Position numbers and translations under genes: made by a program
Source of the DNA: Alphaproteobacteria bacterium
GTDB taxonomy: Bacteria; Pseudomonadota; Alphaproteobacteria; SP197
Length of the DNA stretch: 64,000 nt
Direction of reading: 5' to 3'
NCBI GenBank assembly: GCA_964291265.2
Contig: OZ219747.1
Span: forward strand, 608,001 to 672,000
Notes under the pieces: model-generated
What the model saw: only the letters and a program-made list of their open reading frames with translations
Databases searched by the model: none
What the model was told of the DNA's origin: nothing
Shown: in pieces, positions 1 through 11,054 of the stretch
Numbering within the stretch: the stretch's first letter is position 1
Layout of the letters: every line of letters begins with the position of its first letter

Positions 1-1737
1 TACAACACCTCGGCATTCACACTCCGCGACCTGCGTGCCCGTGCGAACAGGCAGCAGCTCGAAGCGGACTTTCGGGCCTGGCTCGACGGTTTCTCCCCCA
101 ACGTGCAGGACATTCTCGACTGCTTCGAGTTCCGCAACCAGATCCCGAAACTCATCCAGGCCGACGCACTCGGTGCATTGATCGAAAAGCTGGCTTCGCC
201 TGACATCAACCTGAGCCCTGCTCCGGTGATGAACGAAAACGGCGCCGTGCGCCATCCGGGCCTCGACAACCATGCCATGGGCACGATCTTCGAGGAGCTG
301 GTGAGGCGTTTCAACGAGGAGAACAACGAAGAGGCGGGCGAGCACTGGACACCTCGGGACGCCGTGCGCCTGATGGCGAAGCTGGTCTTCCTGCCGATCG
401 CCGACGAGATCGAGTCCGGGACCTATCTGCTCTACGATGGCGCCTGCGGCACCGGCGGCATGCTGACAGTCGCCGAAGAGTCACTGCAGGATCTCGCGAG
501 GGACCGCGGCAAGCAGGTTTCCACGCACCTCTTCGGCCAGGAGATCAACGCCGAGACCTACGCCATCTGCAAGGCCGACCTGCTTCTCAAGGGCGAAGGC
601 GAGGCGGCGGACAACATCGTTGGCGGTCCGGCGCATTCCACGCTTGCCAACGACGCCTTCCCGTCCCGCGAATTCGATTTCATGCTGTCGAACCCGCCCT
701 ACGGCAAGAGCTGGAAGACCGACCTTGAACGCATGGGCGGCAAGACCGGCATGCGCGATCGGCGGTTCCTGATCGAGCACGGCGGCGACCCGGAGTATTC
801 TCTGGTGACCCGCTCGAGCGACGGCCAGATGCTGTTCCTCGCCAACAAGCTCTCCAAGATGAAACAGCACACCCGCCTCGGCAGCCGCATCGCCGAGGTG
901 CACAACGGCTCATCGCTGTTCACCGGCGACGCAGGCCAGGGCGAGAGCAACATCCGCCGCTGGATCATCGAGAACGACTGGCTGGAGGCCGTCGTCGCGC
1001 TGCCGCTCAACCTGTTCTACAACACCGGCATCGCCACCTACGTGTGGCTGCTGACCAACCGTAAGCCCGCACATCGGGCGGGCAAGGTGCAGCTGATTGA
1101 CGCCACCTTGTGGCACCAGCCGTTGCGCAAGAATCTAGGCAAGAAGAACTGCGAACTCGGCGAGGACGACATCGGGCGCATCTGTGACACCTTCCTCGCC
1201 TTCGAGGAGACCGAACGGAGCAGGATTTTCGACAACGCCGCTTTCGGCTACCGGAAGGTCACGGTCGAGCGGCCACTCCGCATCGAGGGCGCCGAGAAGC
1301 GGGTCCACAAGGCGGCCGAGATCAAGCGCCTCAAGGACAACGGCCAGCGGAGCGAAGACGCGACGCCGATCATCAAGAGGATCCACAAGCGAGGCACTGA
1401 AGCCGATCCCCTGCACGGACTGTTCCGTGACACGATCGACGGCAAGACCGCCGTGGTCGAGTACGAGCCCGATACGGAGCTGCGGGACACCGAGCAGATT
1501 CCGCTTCAGGAGGAAGGCGGCGTCGATGCGTTCCTGGAACGCGAGGTCCTGCCTTGGGCACCCGATGCCTGGTACCGCCCCGACGCCGTCAGGATCGGTT
1601 ACGAGATCAGCTTCAACCGCTACTTCTACAAGCCGCAGCCCATGCGCTCGCTGGAGGAGATACGGGCCGACATCCTCGCCCTGGAGACGGAGACCGAGGG
1701 CCTGCTCACCTCCATCATCGGCGAAACCGGCTCATGA
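1..1737 (+). CDS. hsdM: Type I restriction-modification methyltransferase subunit (5' partial)
   Basis: Frame open from base 1 (YNTSAFTLRDL...); GEHWTPR, SAM motif YDGACGTGGML, catalytic NPPY, FYNTGIATY; ATGA overlap with hsdS. Confidence 0.96.
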   Translation, partial: YNTSAFTLRDLRARANRQQLEADFRAWLDGFSPNVQDILDCFEFRNQIPKLIQADALGALIEKLASPDINLSPAPVMNENGAVRHPGLDNHAMGTIFEELVRRFNEENNEEAGEHWTPRDAVRLMAKLVFLPIADEIESGTYLLYDGACGTGGMLTVAEESLQDLARDRGKQVSTHLFGQEINAETYAICKADLLLKGEGEAADNIVGGPAHSTLANDAFPSREFDFMLSNPPYGKSWKTDLERMGGKTGMRDRRFLIEHGGDPEYSLVTRSSDGQMLFLANKLSKMKQHTRLGSRIAEVHNGSSLFTGDAGQGESNIRRWIIENDWLEAVVALPLNLFYNTGIATYVWLLTNRKPAHRAGKVQLIDATLWHQPLRKNLGKKNCELGEDDIGRICDTFLAFEETERSRIFDNAAFGYRKVTVERPLRIEGAEKRVHKAAEIKRLKDNGQRSEDATPIIKRIHKRGTEADPLHGLFRDTIDGKTAVVEYEPDTELRDTEQIPLQEEGGVDAFLEREVLPWAPDAWYRPDAVRIGYEISFNRYFYKPQPMRSLEEIRADILALETETEGLLTSIIGETGS

Positions 1738-3164
1738 TCGACGGCATCACGCCTTATCCGAAGACAAAGCCCTCCAACGTCGAATGGCTTGGGGATGTGC
1801 CAGTGCATTGGGAAGTGCGGCGTCTTCGCAACTTGGCAAGAACTTGCTTCAGCAATGTTGACAAGCATTCAAAAGACGGAGAGCAACTCGTCCGACTTTG
1901 CAACTATTCGGATGTCTATTACAAGGAACGCATCCGCAATGATTTGGATTTCATGGTGGCTACTGCGACTGCGGAAGAGATCGGGAAGTATCAGCTTCAC
2001 GCTGGCGATGTGCTCATCACAAAAGACTCCGAATCATGGGACGATATAGGGGTTCCAGCGTTCGTAGAGAGCACGGATCACGACATCGTTTGCGGCTACC
2101 ATCTCGCGCTACTCCGCCCACGTAAAGGGCGCGCATTTGGGAAGTTTTTGTGCCGTGCCTTATCGGGTCGAGGCATCGCCGATCAATTTTTCGTAAGAGC
2201 GAACGGGGTTACTAGATTCGGCTTATCCCAGATCGCGATTCGGTCTGTATGGTTACCGACCCCACCCCTCCCCGAACAAGCCGCCATCGCCTGCTTTCTC
2301 GACCACGTGGACCAACGCATCACCCGCTGCATCAGCGCGAAGGAGAAGCTGATCGCGCTGCTGGAGGAATACAGGCAGACGGTTGTCAGCGAGGCCGTGA
2401 CGGGCCGGTTTGACGTGCGCACCGGCAAGCCCTACCCGGCTTACAGGCCCTCCGGCGTCAAGTGGCTGGGGGATGTGCCGGCGCATTGGGAAGTGCGGCG
2501 GTTGAAATACCTTTCAGACTTGATCATGGGGCAATCTCCGCCGTCCGAAGAATGCAGTGCCGAGCAAATCGGACTGCCGTTCCTTCAGGGCTGCGCCGAG
2601 TTCGGTTCAGAGCATCCACGACCAGTGCAGTACTGCCGATCTCCTGCCAAAGTAAGTCCGGCTGGCGCGATTCTCATATCGGTGCGAGCGCCGGTTGGTC
2701 GTTTGAACGTCGCCAATCAGCCGTACGGTATCGGGAGAGGACTTTGCGCCGTGATCCCGCAGCCTCGGTTTCTTGACTTCCAATGTTGTCGGTACGGCTT
2801 GGGTCTGTCCTCGACGGGCTTGATAATGCAATCAACAGGATCAACATTTGAAGCCGTGAGCATTGGCGATGTAGCGAGCCTACCAATGGCCATGCCACCC
2901 CTCCCCGAACAAACCGCCATTGCCCGCTTTCTTGACGGAAAGATCGAGAAGATCCAGGTAGGTATCGCCCGGGCACAAGGCGAAATCGACCTGCTGCGCG
3001 AGTATCGCACCAGGCTTATTGCCGATGTTGTCACCGGCAAGCTCGATGTGCGCGCGGCAGCGGCCGAACTGCCGGAGAGCGATGCTACCGTTACTGTCGG
3101 GGCGGACGGTGCGATGGATTGTGATGACGTGCCCGCACTCGGCTCTCCAGATCGGGCGGCATAG
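1734..3164 (+). CDS. hsdS: Type I R-M specificity subunit
   Basis: ATG at 1734 overlaps hsdM stop; two WLGDVP.HWEVRRL and two PPLPEQ.AIA.FLD blocks flanking two lower-GC TRDs; C-terminal LI.DVVTGKLDV. Confidence 0.95.
   Translation: MIDGITPYPKTKPSNVEWLGDVPVHWEVRRLRNLARTCFSNVDKHSKDGEQLVRLCNYSDVYYKERIRNDLDFMVATATAEEIGKYQLHAGDVLITKDSESWDDIGVPAFVESTDHDIVCGYHLALLRPRKGRAFGKFLCRALSGRGIADQFFVRANGVTRFGLSQIAIRSVWLPTPPLPEQAAIACFLDHVDQRITRCISAKEKLIALLEEYRQTVVSEAVTGRFDVRTGKPYPAYRPSGVKWLGDVPAHWEVRRLKYLSDLIMGQSPPSEECSAEQIGLPFLQGCAEFGSEHPRPVQYCRSPAKVSPAGAILISVRAPVGRLNVANQPYGIGRGLCAVIPQPRFLDFQCCRYGLGLSSTGLIMQSTGSTFEAVSIGDVASLPMAMPPLPEQTAIARFLDGKIEKIQVGIARAQGEIDLLREYRTRLIADVVTGKLDVRAAAAELPESDATVTVGADGAMDCDDVPALGSPDRAA
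1751..2936 (+). repeat. hsdS conserved direct repeats flanking the two TRDs
   Basis: 1751-1822 resembles 2429-2500; 2262-2303 resembles 2895-2936. Confidence 0.85.
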
Positions 3165-3422
3165 GGTCGCGGGTTGACCGTGCCGCCGCCCGCTTCGCCG
3201 AAGCTCTACCACATCGTCCACGTGGACCGGTTGCTGTCGATCGTTGCCGACGGCGGCCTCCGGTGCGATGCGGCGCTTCAGGAACAGCCACGGCCGGGGA
3301 CGACCATCGGCATGAGCACGATCAAGGAGCGACGTTTGACCGTAACTGCCCAGGTCTGATTTTGCCGAGTCCTGACGGGAGGTGGATTGATGGCTCCGGT
3401 CTGATGACGCCGAGGAGGGATG

Positions 3423-4964
3423 TCAGAAGCGCAGTTTCGGGATCAGCTGTATGGGATCGGGGTGGGCCAGTGTTTCGAGGACATTCCAGCCCTGTTTTCG
3501 GGCGATGGAGATGACGGATCGCAGCTTGGCGAAGTCCCATGCGCCCTGCATGGATCGGAAGCCGCCCGAGATTTTCTGGCGCAGCTTGCTCATGCGGAAG
3601 TCTTGCTCGGCCTGGTTGTTGGAGAACGGGACTTGCGGGTTGGTGAGGAAGCGCAGGCAGCCGTCCTTGTGCTTCTGAAGGCGAAGCGCGAGGTTGTGGC
3701 CGATGCGGCGTTTTCGTCGTCCGCGCTTTCCGGGCTGGAGCGGCGGCCTCTGTTCGTGGGAAGCGATGGCCTGCTCGAGGATCCTGTCCCAGGCTTGCGA
3801 GATGCGGGCGAGGAGTGAAGCGGGGATGTCGCGGTCGTTCTTGCGGGCGAAGCGGGCGGCTCTGTTGGCACGGATGAGGAGCCTGTGCATGGCGGTGGCC
3901 CAGTCTTCCTTCTCGATCTCGATCAGAGCCTGGAGTTCGCGCAGGTGATGGGCGTTGCAGGCACCGTGGCGCACGCCCTCGAGAGTGAAGTAAGTGGCCA
4001 AGTCGTCATGGATGACGATGCCGTTGAGCGTCTCGTCGATGTGTTTGCGGCCGGTGGCGATGCGCAGGATGGTGAGCAAGGGGGTGCACAGCACATGGAG
4101 CCAGTGGGTCTGGCCGTTGATGCGGATGCCGGTCTCGTCGAGGTGTTTGACCGGTGCTTGGGTGCGGATGATCTGCGCGACATGATCGAGGAAGCTCTCG
4201 AAGCGCCGGGCGGTGCGCCTGCCCATGGCGGCGATGGTGGCGGTTGAGATCCTGACGGCGAAGAGGTCGCTCATGACCTCGGCGACGCGCTTCTCGGGAA
4301 TGAACTGGGCGTGCAACAGGTAGGTCACCCAGGCGGTGATGCGCGGCCCGTACTGGACCGGGGCGCTCACGCCGTGCGGGAAGGCGGCTGTTGTCACAGC
4401 GCCGCAGGCGGCGCAGAGACAGCGATGGGCGCGATGTTCGGTGACCTCGAGGGGCTGCGGCTCGGGCATGTCGAAGACCTGCCGACAGACGGGTTCTGCG
4501 TGACGGTCATCATCCGACAGCGGTGCGCCGCAGCCCTTACAGGCAGACGGAGCATGATCGACGACATGGTCCGGGTTCTCGGCCTGCTTCAGGGTGACTC
4601 CCTCGTGGCCGCGCTGACCGCCACTGGGCCTGTCGGACTTGCCGCGCTGGCTCCGGGTGCGCTTCTGTCGGTTTCCGCTCTTCTTCTTCGGACCGTCGCT
4701 GGCCGGTGGCTTGGAGCTGGTGGAGCTGTCGAGCGCGGCGCTGCGCTCGAGTGCGTCAATCCGTTCGCGCAAGCCGGTGTTCTCCCGCTCCAGCGCCTCG
4801 ATCTCCCCGACCAGCGCCTCACTCAGGCGCAACATCCCCTGGCCCCAATCCCGGAGGGCCTTGACGGCAGTCACGGCGAAGGAGTGTGGACTGAACAGGT
4901 CCTGAAGGCCCACGAAGGCCTCGTCATGGGCGGCGATGTCCTCGCGCCAGCGCGAGACGGTCAC
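3423..4964 (-). CDS. IS66-family transposase
   Basis: SSTSSKPPASD, GGQRGHEG, zinc-finger CKGCG/CAACG, HLDETG, CNAHHLREL, NNQAEQDFRMSK; GTG start at 4964 overlaps methylase stop (GTGA). Confidence 0.93.
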   Translation of the reverse strand: MTVSRWREDIAAHDEAFVGLQDLFSPHSFAVTAVKALRDWGQGMLRLSEALVGEIEALERENTGLRERIDALERSAALDSSTSSKPPASDGPKKKSGNRQKRTRSQRGKSDRPSGGQRGHEGVTLKQAENPDHVVDHAPSACKGCGAPLSDDDRHAEPVCRQVFDMPEPQPLEVTEHRAHRCLCAACGAVTTAAFPHGVSAPVQYGPRITAWVTYLLHAQFIPEKRVAEVMSDLFAVRISTATIAAMGRRTARRFESFLDHVAQIIRTQAPVKHLDETGIRINGQTHWLHVLCTPLLTILRIATGRKHIDETLNGIVIHDDLATYFTLEGVRHGACNAHHLRELQALIEIEKEDWATAMHRLLIRANRAARFARKNDRDIPASLLARISQAWDRILEQAIASHEQRPPLQPGKRGRRKRRIGHNLALRLQKHKDGCLRFLTNPQVPFSNNQAEQDFRMSKLRQKISGGFRSMQGAWDFAKLRSVISIARKQGWNVLETLAHPDPIQLIPKLRF

Positions 4965-5630
4965 GAACCCTCCCCGGCCTCGACGGCCATGATCGCCGCC
5001 AGCACGGCCAGACGTTCCCCCGGCGGCATGGCCTCGTAGCGCCGCCCCCAGTTGGCCGCCTTGCGCTTGATGCACTGGCGGGCGGTGAAGTTCCGCCCCG
5101 CGTAGCGCGACCAGTGCACCCGGTCGGGAGCAAAGTTGAACCATACCACCTCGGTCCGCACCTGGGCCTGGGTCGTCACCTGCAGCGCCACCCGGCGCCA
5201 GCCCGCCAGAAGATCGTCATAGAGCGCTTCACGGGTGGCCCGAGACCATCACCTGGCAGGGCAGGCCCTTGAGCAGTTCAAGGAGCGCAACATGGTCCGC
5301 CTCCTCGTACTCGAAGCGGTAGCGCCGCGACGAACGCCGCGTCGCGTGCAGATAGGGCGGATCGCTGTAGACCAGCTCCGGACCCAGAAACGGGAACGAA
5401 GCCAGGAAGGAGTGAGCACAGTCGTGCACCAACTCCACCGGATAAGCGCACTCAAAGGCCTCAAGCGCACGCTCATCACGGTCAATCCCGATCGAGCGCT
5501 CCGACGCAGCCTTGCGCTTCATCAGCGCTCCGCCCCCCAGATGGCTCTCGATATAGACAGAGTGCGGCGGCATCAGCGCAATCAGCGCCTGGCACAAACC
5601 CGGCGTCGCCTTCGATCCGAAGTACCCCAA
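4961..5630 (-). pseudogene. Dam-like (D12 class) DNA adenine methyltransferase, stop/frameshift near 5230
   Basis: YFGSK, YIESHLGGGA, VYSDPPY; ...VMVSGHP* continues in another frame as ALYDDLLAGW...RTEVVWFNF to 4961. Confidence 0.88.
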
Positions 5631-6286
5631 CGGCCGCCCCCCTCATGACAGAGGGCAACTCATAGGCTCACCGGCCTAGTAAGTCAAGACGCGCAGAATC
5701 AACAAAGCGACGACACCAAAACCGCACCCAACGCAACCAACGTCAACACAGACTCAGACCTGGCGGGGTACCTGGGCAGTTACCGTTTGACCAATCCACT
5801 GGAGTGCCATCCCGGGCTCCATGTCGGCGACTGCGTACCGTTCTATTTCCGCCCGCGCTCCGTCATGCTCTTCGTGATCCACAAGGGCAATCATTCCGAA
5901 CTCGCGTATCGAGGTGGCCAGGACCCCATCGTGCATCTGGAGGCCAACCTGCGCGAAACGGTCAACTGGGCTGAACGGACCGACGCCGGTGGGCATTTAC
6001 CCTTTCCAATGCGGGATCCCGGCACTTCGAAGCCAGGTGTGATCTGGCGCAACTCGACGAGATCGACTGGGTTACCGTCGAGGCGCCACATTGGAGCGAC
6101 CGCATTGAGAGCAAGCAGGCGGAGTTCCTTGTCGAGCGGTCTTTCTCCTGGACGCTGGTTCAGCGCGTCGGCGCGCGCACGCCCGTAACCTGCGACCGGG
6201 CGGCGGAGGCACTGCGGGGCGCTGCTCACCGGCCTGATGTCACGGTTCAGCCGAACTGGTACTATTGACGCCGCAAGGAGACAGAG

Positions 6287-7348
6287 ATGATCCGCTTCAA
6301 GATGGACGATATCCTCGTCGAGGATGCCGAGGCGCTGATCAACACCGTCAACTGCGTCGGGGTGATGGGACGCGGGATCGCGCTCCAGTTCAAGAAGGCG
6401 TTTCCCGAGAACTTCCGCGCCTACGCCGAGGCCTGCAGGCGGGGAGAGGTCCACCCCGGCCGCATGTTCGTCTTCGAGACGGGCGGGCTCACCAATCCCC
6501 GCTTCATCGTCAACTTCCCGACCAAACGCCATTGGCGCGCCAACAGCCGGATCGAGGACATCAAGGCCGGTCTGGACGATCTTGCACGAGTGATCCGCGA
6601 GCGCGGAATCCGTTCTATCGCGGTACCGCCTCTCGGCAGCGGTCTCGGCGGGCTGGACTGGCGCGAGGTGCGGCCGCGCATCGAGGCGGCCCTGCGTGAC
6701 TTCAACGATCTGGATACCGTCGTCTTCGAGCCAGGCGGAGCACCGGCGCCGGCGCTGATGGTGCACGGCCGTGAGGCGCCGGCGATGACGCCGGGCCGGG
6801 CCGCACTGGTCGCGCTGATGAACCGCTACCTGAACGTCCTCCTCGATCCCTTCATCACTCTTCTGGAAGTTCACAAGCTGCTCTACTTCATGCAGGTCGC
6901 GGGCGAGCCGCTGAGACTCCGCTACGCCAAGGCCCTCTACGGGCCTTATGCCGAGAATCTGCGCCATGTCCTCAATGCGCTTGAAGGGCACTTCATATCC
7001 GGCTACGGCGACGGTGGCGACCGGCACGACAAGGTGCTGGAGATCCTCCCCGGCGCGGCCGAGGACGCCGCCGAGGTCCTGGACCGCTGCCCCGCGACGC
7101 GGGAGCGTTTCAGGAAGGTCGCCGACCTGATGGACGGGTTCGAATCGGCTTTCGGCCTTGAACTGCTCTCGACGGTGCATTGGGTTCTCGAACACGATGC
7201 GCCCGCGTCGTCGCAGGATGTTGTCGAGGCGATCTACGCCTGGAACGAGCGCAAGAAGAGGTTCTTTCCCCGGCAGATCGAGCTGGCGGTCGGCGTGCTG
7301 ACCGAGAAGGGTTGGACCGCCGGTGTCGGTGCCGCCGCCCAACCATGA
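6287..7348 (+). CDS. darG: DarG macrodomain antitoxin
   Basis: NTVNCVGVMGRGIALQFK, NFPTKRHWR, PPLGSGLGGL macrodomain; C-terminal HKLLYFMQ, GLELLSTVHW. Confidence 0.95.
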   Translation: MIRFKMDDILVEDAEALINTVNCVGVMGRGIALQFKKAFPENFRAYAEACRRGEVHPGRMFVFETGGLTNPRFIVNFPTKRHWRANSRIEDIKAGLDDLARVIRERGIRSIAVPPLGSGLGGLDWREVRPRIEAALRDFNDLDTVVFEPGGAPAPALMVHGREAPAMTPGRAALVALMNRYLNVLLDPFITLLEVHKLLYFMQVAGEPLRLRYAKALYGPYAENLRHVLNALEGHFISGYGDGGDRHDKVLEILPGAAEDAAEVLDRCPATRERFRKVADLMDGFESAFGLELLSTVHWVLEHDAPASSQDVVEAIYAWNERKKRFFPRQIELAVGVLTEKGWTAGVGAAAQP

Positions 7349-7459
7349 ATGCGGCTTCTGCAGGACGGGCTTGGAACGAACGGTTCAGCTGGTGTTCCTT
7401 GTCACGCTGTCCTGGTTCAGACCCAAGGCAGGTCCGCAATCCGGAAGGAGCTGACGAAG

Positions 7460-7687
7460 ATGACAGACTGGAAGACATGCCCGGCCGTGGAGCGGACACC
7501 GGGAAAGGTCAGCGGCGCATGGGTCTTTGCCGGTACGCGAGTCCCATTGTTCGCCCTTTACGAGAACCTCGCCAGCGGCGCCACGGTCGAAGATTTCGTC
7601 CAGTGGTTTCCCGGCGTGGACAAGGAGAAGGTTCGCGCGGTGCTCGAACACGAGGCTCGGGCGTTGAGGACGGCGCTGGCGCATTGA
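7460..7687 (+). CDS. DUF433 family antitoxin
   Basis: PGKVSGAWVFAGTRVP...LASGATVEDF..WFPGV; aaggag RBS. Confidence 0.88.
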   Translation: MTDWKTCPAVERTPGKVSGAWVFAGTRVPLFALYENLASGATVEDFVQWFPGVDKEKVRAVLEHEARALRTALAH

Positions 7688-8011
7688 GACTCCTGTTCGA
7701 CCAGGGAACGCCTGCGCCGCTGCGGCGTCATTTCCCGGCGCATTCCGTGGACACGCTGGCCGAGAAGGGCTGGTCCGACAAGGATAACGGCGGGTTGCTC
7801 GAACTGGCGGAGCCGGAAGGATACGAGATTCTCGTCACGACCGATCGGAGCTTTCGCCACCAGCAAGAACCTGGAGGGCAGGAAGGTCGGCATCGTGGTT
7901 CTGCTTTCGGCCGACTGGTCGTCGATCAGCCGTCATGTGCTGGAGATGGGACAGGCGATCGCGGCCTTGCAGCCCGGCAAGGTTGTCGAGGTGCCCATCC
8001 AGGCAGCATGA
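7684..8011 (+). pseudogene. DUF5615 PIN-like toxin, frameshifted near 7866
   Basis: TTG start overlapping DUF433 stop; RLLFDQGTP..ILVTTDRSFRHQQ then +1 frame NLEGRKVGIVVL..PGKVVEVPIQAA*. Confidence 0.85.
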
Positions 8012-8012
8012 G

Positions 8013-11000
8013 ATGACAACCGACACCAGCGAACGCGGCCTTGAACGGCTGATCTGCACGGCTCTGGCGGGCCATCCCTGCGAGCCGGAGGCGACGGACG
8101 CCCTCGGCGAGGCGGCGGGCGGCGACGGCGGCGCAGGCTGGGCCGGCGGGAGCCCGCACGACTACGACCGCGACCATTGTGTCGATCTGGTCCAGCTCAC
8201 TGCCTTCCTGCGCGCCACGCAGCCCGAGGCGGCCGAAGCCCTGGCCCTCGACGAGGACGGCCCGGCCCGGCGCAGGTTCCTCGCCCGGTTGCAGGGCGAA
8301 ATCGCGAAGCGGGGCACTGTCGATGTGCTCCGGCGCGGACTCCGGCACGACGCCCACGAGTTCGCGCTGTTCCACGGCGCGCCCTCGCCCGGCAACATGC
8401 AGGCGCGGAAGCGGTTCGAGCAGAACCGCTTCACCGTCACCCGCCAGCTTCGCTACAGCCGCAGCGAGACGCAGCGGGCGCTCGACATCGTGCTCTTCGT
8501 CAACGGTCTCCCGATCGTCACCTTCGAACTCAAGAACAGCTTCACCAGGCAGACCGTGGAGCACGCCGTCGAACAGTACCGGAGGGACCGCGATCCGCGC
8601 GAGAAGCTGTTCGCGCTCGGGCGCTGCATGGCGCATTTCGCCGTGGACGAGAGAAGTGTGCGGTTCTTCACCCATCTCGATGGCAAGGCGTCCCGGTTCC
8701 TGCCGTTCGACCGCGGCTGGAACGATGGTGCCGGCAATCCGCCCAATCCGGACGGGATCATGACCGACTACCTGTGGCGCGAGACGCTGACCCGCTCGAG
8801 CCTCGCCGACATCCTCGAGAACTACGCCCATCTCCTGGCGACAAAGGACAGGAAGACCGGGAAGACGCACCGAACACAGATATGGCCCCGTTACCACCAG
8901 CTCGACGTGGTACGCCGACTTCTCGAGGATGTTGCCGGACACGGAGTGGGAAAGCGCTATCTGATCCAGCACTCGGCCGGAAGCGGCAAGAGCAATTCCA
9001 TCGCATGGCTCGCACAACAACTGGTCGGCCTGACGAAGGATGGCGCCGCGCTCTTCGATTCAATCGTCGTGGTGACCGACCGGCGTATCCTGGACAAGCA
9101 GATCCGCGACACCGTCCGGCAGTACGCCCAGGTGGGAGCGACAGTGGGGCATGCCGAGCATTCCGGCGATCTTATCAAGTTCATCGATTCGGGAAAGAAG
9201 ATCATCATCTCCACGGTTCAGAAGTTCCCGTACATCCTTGATGCCATCGGCACGCAGCAAGGCGGCCGGCGCTTCGCCATCATCATCGACGAGGCTCATT
9301 CGAGCCAGGGAGGACAGGCAAGCGCAGCGATGGGACAAGCGCTTGGTTCGACTGACGCGGCGGAGACGGGCGACACCTTCGAGGACCAGATCAACCGGGC
9401 GATGGAATCGCGCAGGCTGCTGTCCAACGCCAGCTACTTTGCCTTCACCGCCACGCCGAAGAACAAGACACTCGAAATGTTCGGCGCGCCGGACCCGCAA
9501 CCGGACGGCGCAGTCAAGCGCCACGCCTTTCACAGCTACACGATGAAGCAGGCCATCCAGGAGGGATTCATCCTCGACGTTCTGACGCACTTCACGCCCG
9601 TGAAGAGCTACTACAAGATCGCCAAGACCATCGAGGATGATCCCCGCTTCGACACGAGGAAGGCGCGCCGGAAACTGCGCCGCTTCGTCGAGGGGCATGA
9701 GCACGCGATTCGCCTCAAGGCCGAGATCATGGTGGACCACTTCCACGACCAGGTCATCACGCCGGTCAAGATTGGCGGCGAAGCCCGGGCCATGGTCGTC
9801 ACCAACGGAATCAGGAATGCAATCCAGTACTATCACGCCTTCAGTGGCTATCTCGAAGAGCGGAAGAGTCCGTGGAGGGCCATCGTGGCGTTCTCCGGCG
9901 AACACGACATCGACGGCGCCAGGGTGAGCGAAGCCTCACTCAATGGCTTCCCTTCGCGCCTGATCACCGAGAAGTTCCAGGAATCCCCCTACCGCTTCCT
10001 GATATGCGCCGACAAGTTCCAGACCGGCTACGATGAACCTCTCCTGCACACGATGTATGTCGACAAGGCCCTTTCCGGGATCAAGGCCGTTCAGACATTG
10101 TCGCGCCTCAACCGGGCGGTCGCGAACAAGCGTGATGTCTTCGTGCTGGATTTCCAGAATGATGCCGACACCGTGCGTGAAGCCTTCTCCGACTATTACC
10201 GTGCAACGATACTGGCTGACGAGACGGATCCCAACAAGCTGCATGACTTGCAGGCGGCGCTTGACGGCGCCCAGGTGTATTCCTCCGATCAGGTTGAACA
10301 CTTCGTGCGCCTTTACCTCGGCAATGCCGAACGCGATCAACTCGACCCCATTCTCGATGCCTCAGTTACGACCTACCTGAGCGACCTCGACGAAGAGGGA
10401 CAAGTCGCTTTCAAGGGACATGCCAAGGCGTTCGTGCGCACGTACAACTTTCTTTCCTGCGTCTTGCCCTGGTCCAACGCCGACTGGGAACAGCGATCGA
10501 TCTTTCTGAATTTTCTGGTTCCAAGGCTTCCCGCGCCTCAGGAGGAAGATCTGTCCAGAGGTATCCTCGACGCCATCGATATGGACAGCTACCGTACGGA
10601 GAAGCAGGCGGTGCAGGCCGTCCTTCTGTCCGACGCGGATGCCGAAATCGGTCCGGCGCCACCCATTGGCGACGGCCACGGACCCGATCCCGAACTTGAC
10701 CGGCTTTCCAACATCATCAACGAGTTCAACGATCTCTTCGGTGACATTGACTGGGAGGACAGAGATCGCGTGGGCCGCCTCATCACCGAGGATATCCCGA
10801 CACGGGTAGCTGAAGACTCGAGTTTTCGGAATGCACTCAGAAACTCCGATCGCCAGAACACGCGCATTCAGCACGACGTGGCCTTGCGGCATGTCATGAC
10901 GTCGATCATCAATGACGATATTCAGCTCTTCCGTCAGTTCCAGGACAACGACGCGTTTCGCCGCTGGGTGACCGACAAGGTCTTCGATGCCACGTCAACC

Positions 11001-11054
11001 CGACGTTCCAGCGCCGATCAAGGGCACGTACCTGATGTGCATGACATGCGATAG
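8013..11054 (+). CDS. hsdR: Type I R-M restriction/motor subunit
   Basis: DIVLFVNGLPIVTFELK nuclease motif, HSAGSGKS Walker A, DEAH, FTATP, QTGYDEP, QTLSRLNR; start MTTDTSERGLE. Confidence 0.96.
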   Translation: MTTDTSERGLERLICTALAGHPCEPEATDALGEAAGGDGGAGWAGGSPHDYDRDHCVDLVQLTAFLRATQPEAAEALALDEDGPARRRFLARLQGEIAKRGTVDVLRRGLRHDAHEFALFHGAPSPGNMQARKRFEQNRFTVTRQLRYSRSETQRALDIVLFVNGLPIVTFELKNSFTRQTVEHAVEQYRRDRDPREKLFALGRCMAHFAVDERSVRFFTHLDGKASRFLPFDRGWNDGAGNPPNPDGIMTDYLWRETLTRSSLADILENYAHLLATKDRKTGKTHRTQIWPRYHQLDVVRRLLEDVAGHGVGKRYLIQHSAGSGKSNSIAWLAQQLVGLTKDGAALFDSIVVVTDRRILDKQIRDTVRQYAQVGATVGHAEHSGDLIKFIDSGKKIIISTVQKFPYILDAIGTQQGGRRFAIIIDEAHSSQGGQASAAMGQALGSTDAAETGDTFEDQINRAMESRRLLSNASYFAFTATPKNKTLEMFGAPDPQPDGAVKRHAFHSYTMKQAIQEGFILDVLTHFTPVKSYYKIAKTIEDDPRFDTRKARRKLRRFVEGHEHAIRLKAEIMVDHFHDQVITPVKIGGEARAMVVTNGIRNAIQYYHAFSGYLEERKSPWRAIVAFSGEHDIDGARVSEASLNGFPSRLITEKFQESPYRFLICADKFQTGYDEPLLHTMYVDKALSGIKAVQTLSRLNRAVANKRDVFVLDFQNDADTVREAFSDYYRATILADETDPNKLHDLQAALDGAQVYSSDQVEHFVRLYLGNAERDQLDPILDASVTTYLSDLDEEGQVAFKGHAKAFVRTYNFLSCVLPWSNADWEQRSIFLNFLVPRLPAPQEEDLSRGILDAIDMDSYRTEKQAVQAVLLSDADAEIGPAPPIGDGHGPDPELDRLSNIINEFNDLFGDIDWEDRDRVGRLITEDIPTRVAEDSSFRNALRNSDRQNTRIQHDVALRHVMTSIINDDIQLFRQFQDNDAFRRWVTDKVFDATSTRRSSADQGHVPDVHDMR

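Follow-up and report, generated by a model that had tools for sequence, protein, structure and literature searches.

A Dam-like gene of the Upf31 family ahead of the transposase in IS66-family and other insertion sequences: a candidate portable autorepressor cassette

Why would an insertion sequence (IS) carry, directly ahead of its transposase gene, a gene resembling a DNA adenine methyltransferase? The question is raised by a minus-strand IS66-family insertion sequence of 2,442 bp, which runs from position 5783 to position 3342 of a 64,000-nucleotide stretch of an alphaproteobacterial genome (GenBank assembly GCA_964291265.2, contig OZ219747.1, positions 608,001 to 672,000; hereafter, the window). 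Its Dam-like gene belongs to the family of the plasmid protein Upf31, and genes of this family, together with a promoter-like site upstream, also stand ahead of transposases unrelated to that of the window. We favor, with a probability of roughly one half, the reading that this first gene is a portable autorepressor cassette that throttles the transposase. The element is made up as follows, in window coordinates.

5770..5783, minus strand: left inverted repeat (upstream end in element orientation), GTAACTGCCCAGGT, the perfect 14-bp complement of 3342-3355.
5644..5693, minus strand: putative promoter-plus-palindrome homologue, aligned with 80 other cassettes; TTGACT at 5687-5682, arms ACTAG at 5680-5676 and CTATG at 5665-5661.
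5229..5630, minus strand: N-terminal piece of the Dam-like (Upf31-family) gene; TTG start, 133 codons, premature TGA at 5231-5229.
4961..5227, minus strand: C-terminal piece of the Dam-like gene, read in the +1 frame (ALYDDLLAGW...) as far as the TGA at 4963-4961; contains the two predicted C-terminal helices.
3423..4964, minus strand: IS66-family transposase of 513 amino acids; GTG start, its own GGAGG 4 nt upstream.
3342..3355, minus strand: right inverted repeat, a perfect 14-bp match, with GTAACTGCCCAGGT at both ends.
3333..3341, no strand: left copy of the target-site duplication, CGTTTGACC, 9/9 identical to 5784-5792.
5784..5792, no strand: right copy of the target-site duplication, CGTTTGACC.

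Between the ends there are only two genes, the DPPY-bearing Dam-like gene followed by the transposase, and the GTG start of the latter overlaps the TGA stop of the former in the GTGA at 4964-4961. The transposase matches PF03050 (E 2e-39) and PF20042 (DUF6444; E 1.9e-10), has a zinc-finger region, and scores 280.3 bits against NF033517 (cut-off 180). No open reading frame (ORF) for tnpA or tnpB lies inside the element: the space left is only 153 bp ahead of the Dam-like gene and 80 bp behind the transposase, and both helper genes are therefore absent. In all these respects (perfect repeats, two genes, overlap, no TnpA or TnpB), the sequence, ORFs, and profiles agree with a preliminary description of this DNA. 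IS66-family inverted repeats begin with GTAA. The window element has terminal repeats of this kind, an 8-bp target duplication, and an IS66-type DDE transposase, and it lacks the tnpA and tnpB upstream of tnpC that mark the canonical IS66 group. The left-end sequence is common to four other full-length copies in the genome. The duplication had earlier been given as 9 bp, and nine of nine bases do match in the window; however, three sister copies show clear 8-bp duplications (tccgtgac, cctgtgtc, gatattcg), and one full-length copy has none. The family duplication is therefore 8 bp, the ninth matching base being a one-in-four chance, and a 9-bp duplication as a family trait is ruled out.

The same pair of genes occurs in many other genomes. 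Of 3,793 scored candidates, 2,728 are relatives of the Dam-like protein at E 0.001, and the best 120 of them all share at least 70% identity; E 1e-30 is reached by 1,189 cluster representatives in a 50%-identity library. Those that carry a name in their sources are called DNA adenine methylase, DNA methylase, or hypothetical protein. When one genome per species was scanned, 592 stretches were confirmed, the best 80 of which were kept and represent 76 loci. These come from metagenome-assembled genomes (MAGs) titled Alphaproteobacteria, Dehalococcoidia, Binatia, and Tectimicrobiota (four phyla), often with many copies per genome. In 74 of these 76 loci, the end of the Dam-like gene is also where a window-type IS66 transposase begins; at one of the two exceptions the transposase lies 2 kb further on (L038), and at the other none is adjacent (L086). 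Both ORFs are intact at 59 of the 76 loci, 58 of which have the GTGA junction. Of 401 genomes sampled evenly from the window's phylum, only the window's own has this element type, so the distribution is patchy and points to horizontal spread.

The preliminary description took the gene to be an integral part of the element, as opposed to a one-off capture, and three comparisons bear this out. First, the closest relatives of the transposase (64–83% identity) all carry the Dam-like gene. Second, for pairs between lineages within the clade of the window element (family A), the ratio of nonsynonymous to synonymous substitution rates (dN/dS) is 0.12–0.32 for the Dam-like gene and 0.15–0.51 for the transposase, with similar dS. 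Third, the same genome harbors a second IS66 lineage, family B, with 13 full-length transposase genes, 12 of which immediately follow an unbroken cassette gene. The first gene of family B is 63% identical to the uninterrupted protein encoded by family-A sister copies (P0001), and the transposases of the two families are only 33% identical; the two genes of family B again overlap, and its ends carry a 15-bp repeat, GTAACTACTCACCCC, and 8-bp duplications. These alignments support the view that the Dam-like gene is a conserved and selected part of the element.

Is the gene then a partner of IS66 transposases in particular, perhaps in place of TnpA and TnpB? A metagenome scan centered on the family-B protein returned 80 loci with genes 60–74% identical to it, of which 10 have less than 400 nt downstream, leaving 70 assessable. 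A DDE transposase gene lies directly downstream on the same strand in 67 of the 70, and the downstream genes fall out as follows.

61 loci: IS66, including forms only 17–23% identical to the rest.
3 loci: IS701 (NF049999, 159–165 bits, just under the cut-off of 170).
2 loci: IS4 (NF033592, 177 bits against a cut-off of 115).
1 locus: ISKra4 (NF033572, 274 bits against a cut-off of 205).
3 loci: ordinary genes, no transposase.

Inverted repeats surround cassette and transposase together in an IS4 element (L115; 33 bp, 91%) and in the ISKra4 element (L130; 19/22), with weaker repeats in an IS701 case (L119; 17/20). The cassette thus heads IS4, ISKra4, and probably IS701 transposases as well as those of IS66, with the same promoter and palindrome (described below), and an IS66-specific replacement of TnpA and TnpB is not borne out. 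Because it precedes several DDE families, a cofactor specific to one transposase is unlikely. In a tree of 91 cassette proteins (a quick search, with support from the Shimodaira–Hasegawa-like approximate likelihood ratio test only), genes linked to IS4, IS701 (twice), and ISKra4 branch from within the IS66-linked ones. Co-phylogeny of the two genes holds in part: cassette and transposase identities correlate (Spearman 0.75 over 54 gene pairs, which are not independent), but there are clear exceptions, such as L166, with a cassette 80% and a transposase 22% identical. This correlation with its exceptions, the nesting in the tree, and the existence of a cassette-less relative 56% identical to the window transposase together indicate that cassette and transposase have mostly been passed down as a pair within lineages, and that other elements have acquired the cassette repeatedly.

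What the cassette protein does is best approached through its closest studied relative. P0001 (222 amino acids) is 44% identical to Upf31 of the IncP-1beta plasmid pBP136 over its full length (E 4e-64, residues 3–220), and HLGGG and DPPY are kept in Upf31. Plasmid relatives, among them upf31.0 of IncP-1beta plasmids, are at most 53% identical and stand alone. In the available text of Elg et al. (2025; PMC11997246), Upf31 cuts expression from its own promoter, upf31p, from 4.76 to 0.09 XylE units; SMRT (single-molecule, real-time) sequencing in a methylase-free E. coli strain gives no modification signal from Upf31; GATC methylation is not restored by it; and its C-terminal domain is needed for its effects. 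The term methyltransferase, as applied to the window gene in the preliminary description, is therefore unproven, since the relative for which there are data is reported in that text to repress its own promoter and to have no detectable methylation activity.

The protein nonetheless resembles the Dam class. Its predicted structure (a 46-sequence model with a predicted local distance difference test score, pLDDT, of 84.8, which replaced an earlier 14-sequence model with pLDDT 61) has a class I methyltransferase fold and two long C-terminal helices. The best query-normalized TM-scores of the model are to E. coli Dam (0.55) and DpnM (0.53), with many RNA methyltransferases similar by E-value; a homodimer prediction scored 0.22 against a mark of 0.42. 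A sequence profile search of the PDB gave only DpnM (E 0.004) plus spurious tetratricopeptide repeat matches. At E 0.01, P0001 matches no Pfam family, PF02086 (D12) included, and the family-B protein matches PF02086 at 33.9 bits (cut-off 22), partially, over profile positions 175–218 only. The N-terminal piece in the window scores E 2.3e-5 and 24 bits against TIGR00571 (‘dam’), far under the cut-off of 114.85. The order N-terminal GxK, motif I, DPPY is that of the Dam/D12 class (E. coli Dam, DpnM, T4 Dam), which also supplies the best fold matches. In contrast to that class, the cassette protein is only about 220 residues long, with about 55 residues from motif I to DPPY, where Dam has about 135, including a target-recognition hairpin.

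The resemblance to Upf31 extends to the DNA upstream of the gene. A k-mer enrichment in this region is confounded by shared ancestry and served only as a pointer to a promoter and a palindrome. For the alignment, each cassette contributed 50 nt of upstream sequence, positioned by the last TTGAC ahead of the gene. This placed 81 of 88 cassettes; seven were dropped with TTGAC missing or at the wrong distance (L110, L132, L133, L136, L144, L146, and L170). As the anchor word, TTGAC is present in 81/81 rows by construction. The layout of the site is TTGACA, 2 nt, YRTAG, 10 nt, and CTAYG, the last overlapping a −10-like TAYGCT, which makes a palindrome, YRTAG-N10-CTAYG. Across the five positions of its arms, 90.9% of cells are complementary, compared with 17–54% when one arm is slid by 1–3 columns, and in an eight-position extension (CAnCATAG/CTATGnTG) 78.8% of cells pair. 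At one arm position the pair is either A:T (39 distinct rows) or G:C (16), all 17 left-G rows having a right C, and 0 of 500 shuffles reach the observed covariation. The upf31 promoter of pBP136 reads TTGACAGCATCG and many cassettes read TTGACAGCATAG. The operator-like repeat that overlaps the −35 of the gene's own promoter, a feature of the Upf31 family, occurs across the cassettes and is degenerate in the window copy. A plasmid-borne relative from Xanthomonas has the same CATAG-N10-CTATGCTG upstream. As a side observation on that plasmid relative, the right arm and its flank (GACTATGCTGCAGG) appear twice in tandem upstream of the gene (L090:3900-3985).

From homology and architecture we infer the following steps for the autorepressor account. 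The TTGAC promoter-like site would likely drive both the Dam-like gene and the overlapping transposase gene. The palindrome would be the binding site of the cassette protein, which would probably dimerize via its C-terminal helices, in the way that Upf31 reportedly represses upf31p. As the transposase shares this transcription unit, its output would be throttled by the repression; more copies per cell would bring stronger repression, and a copy entering a naive cell would escape it for a short time. Insertion sequences would repeatedly have placed this self-repressing cassette ahead of their transposases. The preliminary description left open whether the gene controls transposition or shields the element from restriction. 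Control is the part that we would retain, although the Upf31 evidence in the available text of PMC11997246 makes repression its likely means, not Dam-type methylation. A wider version of this idea is tentative, and we regard it with some doubt: the self-repressing, methyltransferase-derived cassette might be a general governor of transposition, taken up independently by at least four unrelated transposase families; the S-adenosylmethionine (SAM) pocket might have been kept because the cassette would couple transposase output to copy number and perhaps to methyl-donor state, and cassette-only defective copies might act as host immunity against active ones. A literature search, in which most matches were judged by title or abstract, found no paper describing a Upf31-like cassette in insertion sequences.

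Several observations weigh against the autorepressor account. GxK, motif I (E..LGGG), and DPPY are invariant in 46/46 members, including the IS4, IS701, and ISKra4 ones (14/14 in a smaller set); invariant SAM-binding and catalytic motifs are expected of an active enzyme and needless for a plain repressor, although Upf31 keeps them too. The G:C type of the palindrome is confined to one clade of 28 proteins, so the covariation reflects few events and tracks the protein phylogeny. In the window copy, the left arm is degenerate (ACTAG against CTATG), the −10-like TATGAG is without the final T, and a scan of the window element for consensus promoters and terminators gave 0 sites; the putative promoter and palindrome are assigned there by homology. 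The transposase has its own Shine-Dalgarno sequence, and some independent translation is possible. Finally, the single-ORF IS66 transposase that is 56% identical to that of the window lacks the Dam-like gene. As an observation in its own right, this cassette-less element (L079:2087-3592) occurs in many copies in a MAG that also holds dozens of cassette-bearing elements.

The window copy and its sisters add some detail. Where sister copies with an unbroken Dam-like gene read ...CCG TCT GCG... and encode the uninterrupted 222-aa protein, the window reads ...CCG TGA A GCG...; a stop/+1 lesion had been suspected near 5230 from the window sequence, and comparison with the TCT-bearing copies confirms it. 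The N-terminal piece retains GSK, HLGGGA, and DPPY and is 98.5% identical to P0001, and the truncated product is without the C-terminal helices. Control in cis may have been loosened by this loss, and any repression of the window copy would come in trans from three intact sister genes. The eight genomic copies that span the lesion site divide into five with TGAA and three with TCT. A programmed frameshift at CCG TGA A was considered and rejected: relatives elsewhere are unbroken, the three local copies have plain TCT, and re-pairing of tRNA-Pro in +1 is impossible by reasoning.

The genome holds five uninterrupted full-length family-A copies, at 100, 100, 99, 98, and 97% identity to the window copy, besides interrupted and partial ones. 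The copy at C2:1235822 is 100% identical to that of the window, frameshift included, and is flanked by its own 8-bp duplication; the frameshifted element has therefore moved recently, and the lesion has not immobilized it. These two identical copies at different sites are the sole evidence of very recent movement in the genome, and both have a broken cassette, which fits, weakly, with the loss of a brake. 

Two further observations concern these copies. Both genes are intact in none of the eight aligned family-A copies: a genome search for intact copies found three with an uninterrupted Dam-like gene (C2:160259, 1377786, and 2255529), each with a frameshifted or interrupted transposase, and the intact transposases (window copy, C2:1235822, and 2478985) lie only behind a broken Dam-like gene. 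Additionally, GATC is in excess inside the elements of both families relative to mononucleotide shuffles (family A, window 3342-5783, 17 against 7.8 expected, z 3.5; family B, L013:984-3600, 23 against 8.8 expected, z 5.1), and GANTC is not in excess.

The explanation that survives best beside autorepression, and that we still consider unlikely, is cargo: an active orphan N6-adenine DNA methyltransferase would pre-methylate donor DNA, so that whatever DNA left the cell, including the element, would more readily withstand restriction in new hosts, its upstream place only supplying the promoter. Motif I and DPPY are invariant, as this would require, the modeled fold is closest to Dam and DpnM by query-normalized TM-score, and the family-B protein partially matches PF02086. 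Moreover, on conjugative plasmids the relatives lie in leading or accessory regions, next to ArdC-like zincin genes, distant relatives lie beside an Ogg-like glycosylase in an arrangement resembling a restriction-modification pair, and near-identical elements occur in MAGs of four phyla. The short interval between motif I and DPPY argues against it. So does Upf31, which has the same motifs and for which the available text reports no methylation by SMRT sequencing or GATC-sensitive digestion (PMC11997246). A cargo gene would also not be expected to be always first, co-oriented with the transposase, and often overlapping it (67/70 and 74/76 loci in the two scans).

More doubtful is a self-supplied switch of the IS10/IS50-Dam type, in which the element's own promoter or ends would be methylated, and transposase expression or binding would be high only where the DNA is hemimethylated or carries no methylation, as it would on entry into a new host or immediately following replication. 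The GATC excess in both families, the GATC after the −10-like hexamer in many cassettes, the invariant CTA in each arm of the palindrome, and the conserved catalytic motifs are all consistent with such a switch. Against it, family-A cassettes are without GATC after the −10-like hexamer, no common motif was seen in the ends of the four IS families, and Upf31, according to the text available, methylates neither GATC nor anything detectable (PMC11997246); frameshifted copies also still moved, though intact copies could act in trans. A neutral passenger, captured once and dragged along without a role, is very improbable: transporter insertion sequences with passenger genes, including methyltransferases, are on record (IS220, in the available part of PMC11891212), and IS66 relatives 56% identical lack the gene, but purifying selection on it is on average stronger than on the transposase, it keeps one position and orientation in four transposase families, its IS4, IS701 (twice), and ISKra4 versions imply repeated uptake by nesting inside the IS66-linked ones, and the regulatory palindrome is conserved.

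How would an autorepressor cassette compare with known arrangements? IS10 and IS50 are controlled by the host's Dam, and IS1 InsA and the Tn5 inhibitor are element-encoded inhibitors made from the transposase gene itself. In all of these, transposase expression would be held down, whether through methylation state or through a repressor that the element encodes; the brake proposed here would differ from the others in being a separate, portable gene of methyltransferase ancestry. In its transposase, the window element resembles the tnpA/tnpB-less, single-transposase IS66 organization, which we take to be the ISBst12 group of ISfinder: it shares DDE_Tnp_IS66, DUF6444, the zinc-finger region, GTAA ends, and 8-bp duplications, but adds a first gene that has its own promoter-like site and overlaps the transposase start. 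Upf31 has the same motifs and C-terminal helices, and in its promoter TTGACAGCAT(C/A)G overlaps the −35; it differs in standing alone on its plasmid, where the available text proposes that it acts on KorB (PMC11997246), whereas the cassette gene is the first cistron of insertion sequences, and its repression is a prediction. Transporter insertion sequences likewise have a non-transposase gene between their ends; IS220, of the IS1380 family, is one with a methyltransferase passenger (PMC11891212 in the part available, after Siguier et al., 2009). In contrast, the cassette recurs with its promoter at the same position in several IS families and under purifying selection, a comparison that concerns arrangement.

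If the autorepressor reading is true, it would describe a new and widespread form of IS self-limitation, with a separate methyltransferase-derived brake common to different transposase families, and would explain the spread of these elements across phyla at moderate copy number. Annotations of Upf31-like proteins as ‘DNA methylase’ would gain a tested meaning. Until there is evidence for it, annotation should avoid naming the Dam-like gene as an active DNA adenine methylase.

As to the target, the preliminary description placed the insertion in a toxin gene within a restriction-modification operon, and the profiles concur. The operon (window 1-11054) is of type I, in the order hsdM, hsdS, darT, darG (macro domain), and hsdR, and the element splits darT, leaving PF14487 matches on both sides.

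3174..3341, plus strand: darT 5′ piece (target gene), PF14487 profile 1-44, E 1.2e-9.
5787..5990, plus strand: darT middle piece after the insertion, PF14487 profile 48-101, E 6.1e-17.
5984..6268, plus strand: darT 3′ piece in a different frame, PF14487 profile 101-201, E 2.9e-20.

The change of frame between the middle and 3′ pieces (5975-5990, 5984-6268) is a second darT lesion besides the insertion. 

Two minor observations concern relatives of the element's genes. One transposase relative (P0160; 75% identical over 76% of the query) has an IS66 Orf2-like domain (PF05717) besides PF03050, which may reflect either a fusion or a nested insertion. Two genomes of the same phylum (L172:2642-4218 and L173:3313-4835) have more distant homologs of the Dam-like gene, which overlap an Ogg-HhH-type DNA glycosylase gene, an arrangement that may be a modification or defense pair, and both loci are also near a fusion of PfkB and nucleoside 2-deoxyribosyltransferase.

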